From the sequence record MN715356: a stretch of 64,000 nucleotides of DNA; one strand, written 5' to 3'. Position 1 is the stretch's first letter; every line of letters begins with the position of its first letter. The notes under the pieces are model-generated. The model did not search any database, was not told the origin of the DNA, and saw only the letters and a program-made list of their open reading frames with translations. Position numbers and translations under genes: made by a program. The stretch is from Escherichia phage vB_EcoP_EcoN5. Positions 50,044 through 56,539 of the stretch are shown here, piece after piece.

Positions 50044-50247
50044 TTAGTAGAACGAACGAATTTCATCCCACACTTGTTCCTGTTCTTTCCTATAAAAAGA
50101 AAGTTGGGTCTTGAACATCTCCACTGATGATTCAAAGTTCTTAGATTGTGCAGCTTCAACGAAACGTTCATGTCGGTTGATTTTGCACCGTAACATTAAA
50201 TACTTGGCTTCAAGCCTCCGAAGAGCCTGCCTTTTCTCAAGATTCAC
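50044..50247 (-). CDS. hypothetical small protein
   Basis: 67-aa co-oriented ORF. Confidence 0.35.
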   Translation of the reverse strand: MNLEKRQALRRLEAKYLMLRCKINRHERFVEAAQSKNFESSVEMFKTQLSFYRKEQEQVWDEIRSFY

Positions 50248-50656
50248 TTTTCAGATACTCTGACCAGTCGCCAGATTCGACCAGAACATCTTGTTCTTCG
50301 TCAATGTGATAAATCCAAGCGATAACAGTTTCACCTGAGTCCAGCTTAACGGAAATCTGGGTGCGTTGATAGAAGCTATCTTCAGGGCTACGTTTGTTGT
50401 AACCTTCCAGTCGGTCATACGGACCTTCCAGACCTGCTTTGTCAGTAGCAAACACTTCTACACGAACAGGCTTATTGTTATTGCTGTGTGCGAGAGAGAT
50501 GCTTGGGAAGTAGGAACCACCGTAACGGAACAGATCGAAGTTATCTTCAGTCCAACCTTCACCAATTGACTTAGCACCAGCTCGGTCATTAACTAAATAA
50601 TTAGCTTGACCACGACGTAGACTTCCGTAACATGCTACAAAAACTTTATCTGACAT
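50237..50656 (-). CDS. gamma-glutamyl cyclotransferase-like protein (AIG2/GGCT fold)
   Basis: N-terminal VFVACYGSLRRGQANY matches the YGSL...G motif of GGCT-like enzymes. Confidence 0.5.
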   Translation of the reverse strand: MSDKVFVACYGSLRRGQANYLVNDRAGAKSIGEGWTEDNFDLFRYGGSYFPSISLAHSNNNKPVRVEVFATDKAGLEGPYDRLEGYNKRSPEDSFYQRTQISVKLDSGETVIAWIYHIDEEQDVLVESGDWSEYLKSES

Positions 50657-51182
50657 TTTTCCAACCCTTATGTTGATGTTGATTACCTTTGTGGACAGCC
50701 AGCATTGAGGATTTAGCTAACCCATTAACGCGACAAAAATTACAAAGGTTCTTAAAAGAAGTGATTTCACCTTCTGGTGAGGTAAATGACCACTCAAGAG
50801 ATTGAGCGTTAGCCATGGTGTCGGGGTTTTGAAGTCCAGTATCCCATGCGTGCTGGTTGTTTTCTTGAGAAGTCACCCATTCAAGATTAATTATGGAGTT
50901 GTTTATCTTATTTCCATCCCTATGATTAACAAAAGGCTTACCTTCTGGATTGTCTATCCAAGACAGTGCCACTAGTTGATGTAAATAGTGGAGTTTTCTA
51001 TCCGAAAGCTTTACTCTATAGTACCCAGCTTTGGAAATGTTAGGGGTCATTATTAATTCTCTATCTTTCCTATGGCGTGTTAGAGTCTTAGGATTAATGT
51101 ACCACCTGTAATTACTTCTAATATCTCCATTATCAGAAACTGAATACTGGTTATCATATCCAGGAATAAATCTCCATTCCAT
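50646..51182 (-). CDS. HNH homing endonuclease (NUMOD4-like N-terminus)
   Basis: GYDNQYSVSDNGDIRS then FVNHRDGNKINNSIINLEWVTSQEN. Confidence 0.6.
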   Translation of the reverse strand: MEWRFIPGYDNQYSVSDNGDIRSNYRWYINPKTLTRHRKDRELIMTPNISKAGYYRVKLSDRKLHYLHQLVALSWIDNPEGKPFVNHRDGNKINNSIINLEWVTSQENNQHAWDTGLQNPDTMANAQSLEWSFTSPEGEITSFKNLCNFCRVNGLAKSSMLAVHKGNQHQHKGWKNVR

Positions 51183-55356: not shown

Positions 55357-55435
55357 TTTCTAATCCACCTGAAGGGTAAACCCTTTCATCTAATTAACCT
55401 TTAAATTGTGCCCCTTTGTCAGAGGCACCCATTGA

Positions 55436-56539
55436 TTACAGCGCTTGCTCTAACTGATTTTCCAGATGATCTGGAATGTACCCTGTGATGTTGTTATCAC
55501 TATGGCCTGACTCACGTAGTAAGTCAAAAATAGCACGGATACGTTGCTCTGGTGCAGATCGTACAGTAGATAGGTCAGTTGTACGAAGCATAACCAGAAT
55601 CTCTTGGTACAAGTTGTTAGCGTTCCCTCGGACATATCCAAGGAATCCGTAGAAGTCTGAGATATGACGTAGGTCAACAAGAACTTCTCCGTTGGAGTTG
55701 GTTCGACGTAAACGAATACGACCAGACTGTTCTACTTCATGAGAACGACAATACAAAACATCACGGGCCATACAATAGCCTGAATGCAAATCCGATTCAT
55801 CCAGATTGTAATCCAGAGGAAGGTAAGGAAGCATTGGGGCAAATCGTACAGTATTTAAGTGCTCGATAAACTGATCATTGCTCATATCTGCATTATCTAG
55901 AGCCAGCTTCTTCAACATCAAGAAGCGGTTAACCAGATTGAGAAGTTGACCACGTTTCCACTTAGGCTCACTGATACGGAACTCAATCGAACCGTATTGG
56001 GCAAGTGGCAGAAGATTCAGGGATGTATACTTATCCCATGAACGAACCAGACGGTTGAAGAACTCTTCGTCGTCGTAGTTAAATGCGTCAGAGGCATTCA
56101 TTACCTGTGCTTGTACCACTGCAAAAGCAGGGCAGAAGTTGCTACGGTAACGATGGTAGCCTGAACACTTGAACAACATCTTTTCATAGAAGGTCCAAGC
56201 GAGAATGGTTTTCTTGAGGATATTACTATCAGCATCCCTCATATCCATATGAACGTGAGTAGAGCAACGCCAAGTCCCCTCGGCGTGCGATTCAGCTACT
56301 GCTTCACTCAGGTTGTTGATAGCGTCTAACAACTCCTGTCCGTTGTAAGGCCGTGAACATACCATTTCACAACCATTACGCAGGGAACCATCCTCTGTAC
56401 AATCCCACATATCTGCTTCGATATGATCGGAACCTTCTAGTTCAAGTTCAATACCGACACCGCACTGAAGTGCAATTGAACTATGCGCCTCAGTTAAACG
56501 CCCTTCTCGATATCCAAAAGTTTGCGCTACAGTTGTCAT
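55436..56539 (-). CDS. carboxylate-amine ligase-like protein (YbdK/GCS2-type amidoligase candidate)
   Basis: N-terminal ALQCGVGIELELEG resembles the G-h-E-x-E motif of YbdK-type ligases; 367 aa. Confidence 0.4.
   Translation of the reverse strand: MTTVAQTFGYREGRLTEAHSSIALQCGVGIELELEGSDHIEADMWDCTEDGSLRNGCEMVCSRPYNGQELLDAINNLSEAVAESHAEGTWRCSTHVHMDMRDADSNILKKTILAWTFYEKMLFKCSGYHRYRSNFCPAFAVVQAQVMNASDAFNYDDEEFFNRLVRSWDKYTSLNLLPLAQYGSIEFRISEPKWKRGQLLNLVNRFLMLKKLALDNADMSNDQFIEHLNTVRFAPMLPYLPLDYNLDESDLHSGYCMARDVLYCRSHEVEQSGRIRLRRTNSNGEVLVDLRHISDFYGFLGYVRGNANNLYQEILVMLRTTDLSTVRSAPEQRIRAIFDLLRESGHSDNNITGYIPDHLENQLEQAL

Follow-up and report, generated by a model that had tools for sequence, protein, structure and literature searches.

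The phiEco32/LUZ24-type phages carry a module of genes for amide-bond enzymes, and one of its protein families, PF14395 (phage phiEco32-like COOH-NH2 ligase type 2), bears the name of phiEco32 in Pfam. This exact set of genes is credited to Iyer et al. (2009) in papers on LUZ24-like and OM43 phages, which speak of a 'putative peptidoglycan modification module' with the proposed role of keeping out superinfecting phages or readying the wall for lysis; our account of the computational work of Iyer, Abhiman, Burroughs and Aravind (2009) follows these citing papers and the Pfam family names. For UFV-P2 and tf phages the same genes have been listed without comment. No experimentally determined product of the module was found in the literature searched, in agreement with an earlier reading of the present DNA from its letters (the sequence-only reading), which stated that such neighbourhoods had been noted computationally without a determined product. 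In this work, we analyzed a stretch of 64,000 nucleotides (nt) from Escherichia phage vB_EcoP_EcoN5 (sequence record MN715356), whose whole length is referred to below as the window, and which contains a cluster of such genes on its minus strand. This cluster is the phiEco32-type phage amidoligase module, already known and not new. Our results add a five-gene core that includes a previously unrecognized, probable adaptor (U), a swap between two unrelated gamma-glutamyl-cleaving enzymes, and a corrected amidotransferase start. By analogy with characterized enzymes, we favor with moderate confidence that the module encodes a sequential ATP-dependent amide-ligation pathway, in which an acceptor would carry a transient gamma-glutamyl group.

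The window corresponds to a Kuravirus coliphage (Gordonclarkvirinae), with Escherichia phage Paul as its top megablast match (96.5% identity across 94% of the query). The region was matched by 97 phage records, 64 of which contain most of it. The orthologues in Paul already carry the labels gamma-glutamyl cyclotransferase, ATP-grasp enzyme, aminotransferase, carboxylate-amine ligase and COOH.NH2 ligase. An open reading frame (ORF) check found the genes named by the sequence-only reading where it had placed them, all on the minus strand; and a type-2 ligase of PF14395, an Amidoligase_2 protein of PF12224, a class II glutamine amidotransferase, an ATP-grasp ligase and an AIG2/gamma-glutamyl cyclotransferase (GGCT) protein were all found in one co-oriented cluster. 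With respect to the phiEco32/LUZ24-type module (PF14395, PF12224), the families, their order and the phage genus are the same and nothing essential differs, the window copy being distinguished by an HNH insertion between the GGCT gene and the ATP-grasp region.

Conservation was assessed over 85 loci selected by one gene (C, the PF14395 ligase), comprising annotated phage regions, among them those of LUZ24, Vp_R1, CVT22, KIT05 and the crAss-like Cellulophaga phage phi14:2, and 79 IMG/VR loci out of 404 confirmed contigs carrying C; family counts were obtained by iterative local hidden Markov model (HMM) searches. Five genes constitute the core, in the order C (57163..57969 in the window), U (56536..57153), A (55436..56539), G (53326..55356) and R (51680..52882), followed by the GGCT gene (50237..50656) and then by primase/helicase genes, and this order is almost invariant. 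Gene A was detected in 84 loci, G in 82, U in 81 and R in 79, most absences of core genes falling at contig ends, and the GGCT gene in 47. By tblastn, C was present in 305 of 50,697 phage records (about 0.6%) and the G N-terminus in 310, with nearly equal counts per genus, and the carriers include phages of E. coli, Pseudomonas, Vibrio, Aeromonas and marine bacteria. Only 10 loci were found in 100,044 species genomes (one genome per species), mostly on short metagenome-bin contigs with the same phage module; the module is essentially viral.

The clustering of the core genes is far beyond chance. A large share of the loci belongs to related podoviruses with a common genome architecture, and the conserved order could reflect descent; nevertheless, that these genes adjoin merely by chance or shared ancestry, with no joint function, is in our view exceedingly improbable. 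In distant contigs the same gene set recurs in shuffled order, which argues that selection keeps it together, and a rearranged set is also found in the crAss-like phage phi14:2, where the genes for GGCT, R, C, G and an amidoligase of 515 amino acids (aa) lie between primase and uracil-DNA glycosylase (U was not detectable in this locus). Furthermore, C and G agree in their numbers of records within each genus, and the window genes overlap or abut, consistent with translational coupling. The proposal of the sequence-only reading that the amide-bond enzymes encoded here belong to a single conserved functional unit is thus supported by their co-occurrence and order over the 85 loci and by the shuffled sets.

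The GGCT protein is, judging by its family model, YGSL motif and putative catalytic glutamate, a GGACT/AIG2-like cyclotransferase, as had been recognized from the sequence. It matches Pfam GGACT with an E value of 2e-17 (64.2 bits against a cut-off of 22.8) and PHROG 2520 with 1e-43, and it displays YGSL at residues 10-13 and RLEGY at 82-86, with the glutamate at 84. This accessory enzyme would cut a gamma-glutamyl amide into 5-oxoproline and a free amine. The commonest other neighbor is a Peptidase_C26/class I amidotransferase-like protein (29 loci, often directly upstream of C; Pfam E 2e-22), which we take to belong to the gamma-glutamyl hydrolase family that includes PuuD. Among complete loci, 32 carry only GGCT, 21 only Peptidase_C26, one carries both and four neither (Fisher p 7e-11, for loci that are not phylogenetically independent). 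Since two unrelated enzymes that break gamma-glutamyl amides alternate in this manner, the distribution argues that the module forms a gamma-glutamyl amide and later removes it. An alternative association of a similar kind in bacteria is said to be mentioned in the Pfam note for Amidoligase_2, so that the idea is not entirely novel.

Three of the core proteins are ligases. Protein C matches PF14395 with 34.1 bits against a cut-off of 25 (PHROG 3815, E 3e-118), and its family alignment contains invariant H142, H144, R182, E200 and R202. Protein A matches PF12224 with 33.9 bits against 22 (PHROG 7469, E 4e-159), with invariant E31, E33, E35, E58, H95, H97, E119, R130, E186 and R188. The label 'YbdK/GCS2-like' previously given to A was not borne out: Amidoligase_2 is its sole Pfam match, GCS2 being absent from the matches, and neither the single protein nor the family profile matched a solved YbdK structure in searches against the PDB. 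Protein R matches PHROG 2599 (E 2e-183) and, over residues 319-400, PHROG 20552; it contains LEVN at residues 240-243, which is presumably the Mg/ATP E-x-N motif, and has a lineage-specific C-terminal extension (about residues 290-400). From these features R is a divergent RimK-like ATP-grasp ligase by sequence, and the earlier ATP-grasp assignment holds as regards the PHROG family and the motif, the RimK and Ddl matches all lying below curated cut-offs. Its best sequence matches are RimK (ribosomal protein S6 glutamate ligase) and MptN; however, on these models it scores 23-31 bits against curated cut-offs of 143-350 (TIGR00768, 30 bits against 143), and on Pfam RimK 19.2 bits against 21. Because the scores are so far below the cut-offs, R is not a RimK orthologue, and the PHROG name 'ribosomal protein S6 glutaminyl transferase' is unjustified for it.

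Protein G, a class II (Ntn) glutamine amidotransferase of 676 codons, had been delimited correctly by the sequence-only reading, with its end at 55356, only if translation begins at a non-standard ATT. The frame contains no ATG, GTG or TTG upstream of 55017 and is open back to a TAG at 55362-55360; an ATT at 55356-55354 is followed by Cys-Gly-Ile-Val, the cysteine being residue 2, and is preceded 8 nt upstream by a Shine-Dalgarno-like AGGTGG read from the sequence (55365..55370). With the ATT N-terminus, the GATase_6 score increases from 23.7 to 55 bits and the alignment to the glmS model begins at model position 2, and only with this predicted start would G possess the N-terminal catalytic cysteine of class II amidotransferases. 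The ATT-TGT start is found in all Kuravirus-like loci, as well as in two unrelated metagenomic lineages (these loci together being L001, L007-L010, L018, L026 and L050), and its ribosome-binding context is identical in six related loci; ATG-TGT is found in 70 of 83 G homologues, and TTG-TGT in others seen. Many GenBank records place the start at the internal TTG (563 aa), by which the catalytic cysteine is lost, and the truncated form constitutes a protein cluster of 211 members. In phi14:2, the amidotransferase is annotated with about 32 residues before the catalytic cysteine. As a separate observation, an 8-bp GC-rich hairpin (GUGCCUCU...GGGGCAC; 55395-55430, minus strand) lies just past the stop of A, within the 79 nt that separate this stop from the ATT; folding of this leader gave an energy that was not significant (z = -1.7).

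The residues equivalent to R73, N98-G99 and D123 of GlmS are conserved in G, in addition to Cys1 and the Ntn fold, and the glutaminase site is intact. The structure model places the glutaminase domain at residues 1-243, followed by a disordered linker, an OB-like barrel (about 279-390), three zinc ribbons and a beta domain. In this model, the 430-residue tail of the Kuravirus protein comprises a helix, a barrel of five strands in the OB order, three zinc-ribbon modules of the CxxC...CxxC type and the beta domain. These C-terminal 430 residues had no Pfam match, and neither Pfam nor the structure model revealed a known synthase or acceptor domain of the isomerase, PRTase, asparagine synthetase or glutamate synthase type. 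The shortest G homologues, of about 373 aa, lack the zinc-ribbon tail.

Core protein U (205 aa), always encoded between the two non-ATP-grasp ligases, has no family annotation, with no sequence match in Pfam, NCBIfam or the PDB; its PHROG is common to LUZ24 gp17 and Vp_R1 gp069. A structure model built on 19 sequences predicts small SH3-type barrels of SH3/Tudor/KOW-like fold, with the most conserved residues (P85, G88, R106, Q107, K110 and G111) within a low-confidence loop, four of which (R106, Q107, K110 and G111) belong to a conserved basic loop. From the model, U is probably a non-catalytic adaptor of small SH3-like barrels. Because no potentially modifiable residue is invariant in the family, U would be an adaptor rather than a substrate, which we state with low certainty. 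A second homologue search with a profile of the first matches yielded nothing new, a fold search against viral models returned only U's own family, and no fusion linking U to an enzyme was found between module members.

The sequence-only reading had suggested that four ORFs upstream of A, which it called unknown, may belong to the module. Two of them are the core genes U and C, the latter being the second ligase that had been missed; the remaining two, like U, are indeed without family annotation. Member Y (57962..58933, 323 aa), directly upstream of C, was detected by simple search in 9 of the 85 loci, all Kuravirus-like, and its remote homologues occupy the same position in about 37; an ORF of some 300-330 aa lies directly upstream of C in several lineages. 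Profile-profile comparison linked the Kuravirus family to those of 7-11-like phages (95%, E 4e-8), Vp_R1 (94%) and a marine cluster (79%, E 2e-5), and detected no relation to the LUZ24 protein at this position. Y is a fast-evolving yet frequent partner. Profile searches for Y gave no Pfam or PDB match, and its invariant residues (C26, R130, E187, Y231 and R233) suggest an enzyme. The fourth ORF (58944..60140, 398 aa; PHROG 13063) is confined to Kuravirus-like phages (9/85 loci) and is doubtful as a module member; it had no match in Pfam, NCBIfam or, by single-sequence search, the PDB. A perfect 1518-bp tandem duplication (59979-61496 and 61497-63014), which could be real or an assembly artefact, begins inside the 5' end of this gene; its second copy contains a truncated 56-aa version of the 398-aa protein plus duplicates of five small ORFs, and Paul has a single copy.

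With respect to expression, the ATP-grasp, glutamine amidotransferase (GATase) and GGCT proteins of phage SU10, a 23.3-kDa protein that by its size is taken to be U, and the neighboring nucleotidyltransferase have been seen by mass spectrometry and classed among the early gene products, and gp79, whose homologue lies inside the cluster, is a middle gene in phiEco32; by analogy, expression of the module would fall in the early to middle phase of infection. Nothing above background emerged from simple scans for promoters and terminators.

Taking into account the gene identities, the intact catalytic motifs, the co-occurrence and order of the genes, the alternation of GGCT and Peptidase_C26 and the SU10 proteins, we propose a model whose chemical steps and target are all drawn from analogy. 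The three ATP-dependent ligases would form as many as three amide bonds, centered on glutamate or glutamine, on a single acceptor. C or A would attach a gamma-glutamyl group to an amine; A would activate a carboxylate, which G would amidate with ammonia from glutamine, or else G might hydrolyze a gamma-glutamyl amide in the manner of EgtC; and R would add an amino acid, probably glutamate. Either role of G fits, given its intact glutaminase site and the usual position of the A gene immediately upstream of it. GGCT, or Peptidase_C26 in its place, would later strip the gamma-glutamyl group as 5-oxoproline or glutamate, respectively, so that the group would serve as a transient 'handle' or protecting group. 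U, together with the OB/zinc-ribbon tail of G in Kuraviruses, would hold the acceptor, which is slightly more likely to be a macromolecule (a protein or something nucleic-acid-associated) than a free metabolite. The sequence-only reading had named a metabolite, a protein, a nucleic acid and the cell wall as candidates, a range too wide to be wrong.

Several points weigh against this proposal. The placement of A and C in a glutamine-synthetase-like superfamily comes from Pfam and the 2009 paper rather than from our own tests: sequence and profile searches of the PDB gave no solved-structure match for either, and a profile-profile comparison of A with C (hhalign) returned a probability of 0.3%, with only an R-T-x-x-H-V-H motif aligned, so that paralogy of the two was not supported. 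R fails every curated cut-off, its RimK, Ddl and MptN matches in Pfam and NCBIfam being weak. Four complete loci from 7-11-like phages (L014-L017) carry neither GGCT nor Peptidase_C26 within 10 kb, and may rely on a third, unrecognized enzyme or on a gene located elsewhere in the genome. As the C-terminal tail of G is lineage-specific, its hint of a macromolecule may hold for Kuraviruses only. Finally, small molecules are the classical substrates of GGCT and C26 enzymes, a point in favor of a metabolite as the target.

This last point leads to the alternative that the module serves free small-molecule metabolism, making or rerouting a soluble gamma-glutamyl compound (such as a glutathione-like peptide or a gamma-glutamylated polyamine) and thereby reshaping host metabolism. 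The closest characterized analogues all act on small molecules, namely glutamate-cysteine ligase with glutathione synthetase, PuuA/PuuD, EgtA/EgtC and BtrJ/BtrG, and the GGCT/C26 alternation matches such pathways; the lack of a zinc-ribbon tail in the shortest amidotransferases also speaks for this alternative. Nevertheless, a soluble metabolite pathway would not normally include a universally conserved, non-catalytic barrel protein such as U, the module has no conserved transporter or export gene, and no candidate substrate is indicated; we consider this alternative rather unlikely. The prediction of 2009, in which unusual peptide or amide linkages on peptidoglycan precursors would bring about superinfection exclusion or prepare lysis, is also unlikely in our estimation. 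The citing literature describes the module in this way with reference to Iyer et al. (2009). All module proteins look cytoplasmic, as precursor-modifying enzymes would. The chemistry would also fit that of the Ddl ATP-grasp ligase, of glutamine-dependent amidation by MurT/GatD and of AsnB/LtsA, and three free carboxylates and an amine are available on the stem peptide. On the other hand, domain searches of the members revealed neither a cell-wall-binding nor a Mur-type domain, the extra domains are closer (by weak matches) to Tudor/KOW and OB/S1 folds than to bacterial wall-binding SH3b, and in most lineages the module stands among replication genes beside primase/helicase and not with lysis genes. 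Carriers among archaeal viruses were considered as a case against the cell wall and discarded; the cited virus also encodes a muramidase-type lysin, and its host assignment is doubtful.

The position of the module, embedded in the replication module in several lineages and between primase and uracil-DNA glycosylase in the crAss-like phage, together with the modelled OB-like barrel and zinc ribbons of G, would agree with the modification of nucleic acids, by which an amino-acid-type adduct on phage DNA, nucleotides or RNA would confer restriction resistance on Gordonclarkvirinae. In the BASEL study these phages were strikingly restriction-resistant with no known DNA modification pathway, and amidoligase and amidotransferase domains have been noted beside thymidine-hypermodification genes (Lee et al.). 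The window contains 18 EcoRI, 37 EcoRV, 12 EcoKI and 102 EcoP1 sites, each count at or above expectation, by which site avoidance was rejected as the cause of resistance to these four systems; as the relevant sites are not avoided, there is room for a nucleic-acid role. Nevertheless, against bulk DNA modification, the DNA of phage tf, a LUZ24 relative with the module, was cut by HaeIII and its nicks could be sealed by ligase, and nanopore analysis of Rembedalsseter, another such relative, reported only nicks. Overall, we hold the nucleic-acid alternative to be improbable, at best, and it is more doubtful still that the broad restriction resistance of Gordonclarkvirinae is explained by an adduct derived from an amino acid on phage DNA or on precursors of this DNA, or by another action on nucleic acids. 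We retain the ligation pathway with a transient gamma-glutamyl group as our preferred model.

The remaining genes of the cluster are accessory or inserted. The HNH homing endonuclease gene (50646..51182), whose NUMOD4 and HNH_3 domains both score above the Pfam cut-offs, was rightly read as inserted in the cluster: family searches found it in one locus of 85, the megablast match to Paul is split in two pieces covering 94% of the query, and Paul has a different ORF, of 70 aa, at the same spot, from which it follows that the gene is a mobile insertion rather than a functional member of the module. Including this one, the early/middle region contains three scattered HNH_3 homing endonuclease genes (38429-38923, 45259-45783 and 50646-51182). 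Inside the cluster also lies a homologue of phiEco32 gp79 (51425..51673), identified through the annotation of the Paul orthologue and specific to Kuravirus (9/85 loci); gp79 is an RNA-polymerase-binding transcription regulator and a middle gene (PMC8948821). Two small ORFs between R and G had been suggested as peptide substrates or carriers, an idea that we rejected as a general one on account of their patchy distribution: the DUF7195 protein (53090..53323; Pfam E 5e-17, above cut-off) was found in 23 loci and the 74-aa ORF (52885..53109; PHROG 13464) in 9, only in Kuravirus-like lineages, and in 44 loci the G and R genes abut or nearly abut, with no room for a small gene between them. As they are not conserved partners, they are unlikely substrates or carriers. 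The aligned DUF7195 sequences display a conserved strand-helix-helix pattern, and this accessory protein resembles those of the ribbon-helix-helix type.

Immediately downstream of the module, the window encodes ThyX (41845-42501), a dCTP deaminase (45752-46306) and a CCA-adding-like nucleotidyltransferase (46316-47734; PolyA_pol head domain, below cut-off). The presence of ThyX weakens a published guess that deoxyuridine replaces thymidine in these phages. A scan of selected neighbors found ThyX, dCTP deaminase and a family A DNA polymerase, with no search aimed at the hallmark genes of thymidine hypermodification (5-hydroxymethyl-dU kinase, aGPT-pyrophosphorylase and dUMP hydroxymethylase). 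Regarding base composition over the whole window, Dcm sites (CCWGG) are strongly depleted (7 observed, 74 expected), and thirteen six-base palindromes are absent, mostly GC-rich, including the BamHI, PstI, KpnI and SacI sites.

The module is widespread in viruses and almost absent from cellular genomes, and solving it would uncover virus-specific biochemistry, possibly a new modification of host or phage macromolecules, a new metabolite or a new anti-defence route. For such work, the BASEL collection now offers Kuraviruses able to form plaques on E. coli K-12 derivatives whose O16 O-antigen has been restored.

Each of the characterized systems on which the model draws shares one part of its logic with the phage module. 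In MurT/GatD and in AsnB/LtsA, a ligase activates a carboxylate and a glutaminase supplies the ammonia, as proposed here for A and G; however, MurT has a Mur-ligase fold and GatD is a class I amidotransferase, unlike the phage enzymes, and AsnB contains its own synthetase domain, which is absent from the phage G. In ergothioneine biosynthesis, EgtA is a glutamate-cysteine ligase and EgtC a class II Ntn amidohydrolase, the precedent for the hydrolytic role that G might have. In butirosin biosynthesis, the ATP-grasp ligase BtrJ adds a gamma-glutamyl protecting group that the GGCT-fold BtrG removes as 5-oxoproline; the acyl carrier protein and aminoglycoside genes of that pathway have no counterpart in the phage module, and what is shared is the logic of adding and then removing the group. 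In putrescine utilization, PuuA is a glutamine-synthetase-like gamma-glutamyl-amine ligase and PuuD a Peptidase_C26 hydrolase. The oxidase and dehydrogenase steps are absent from the phage module and the phage ligases come from other families, yet the loci without GGCT carry, as in this pathway, a Peptidase_C26 gene beside the ligases.

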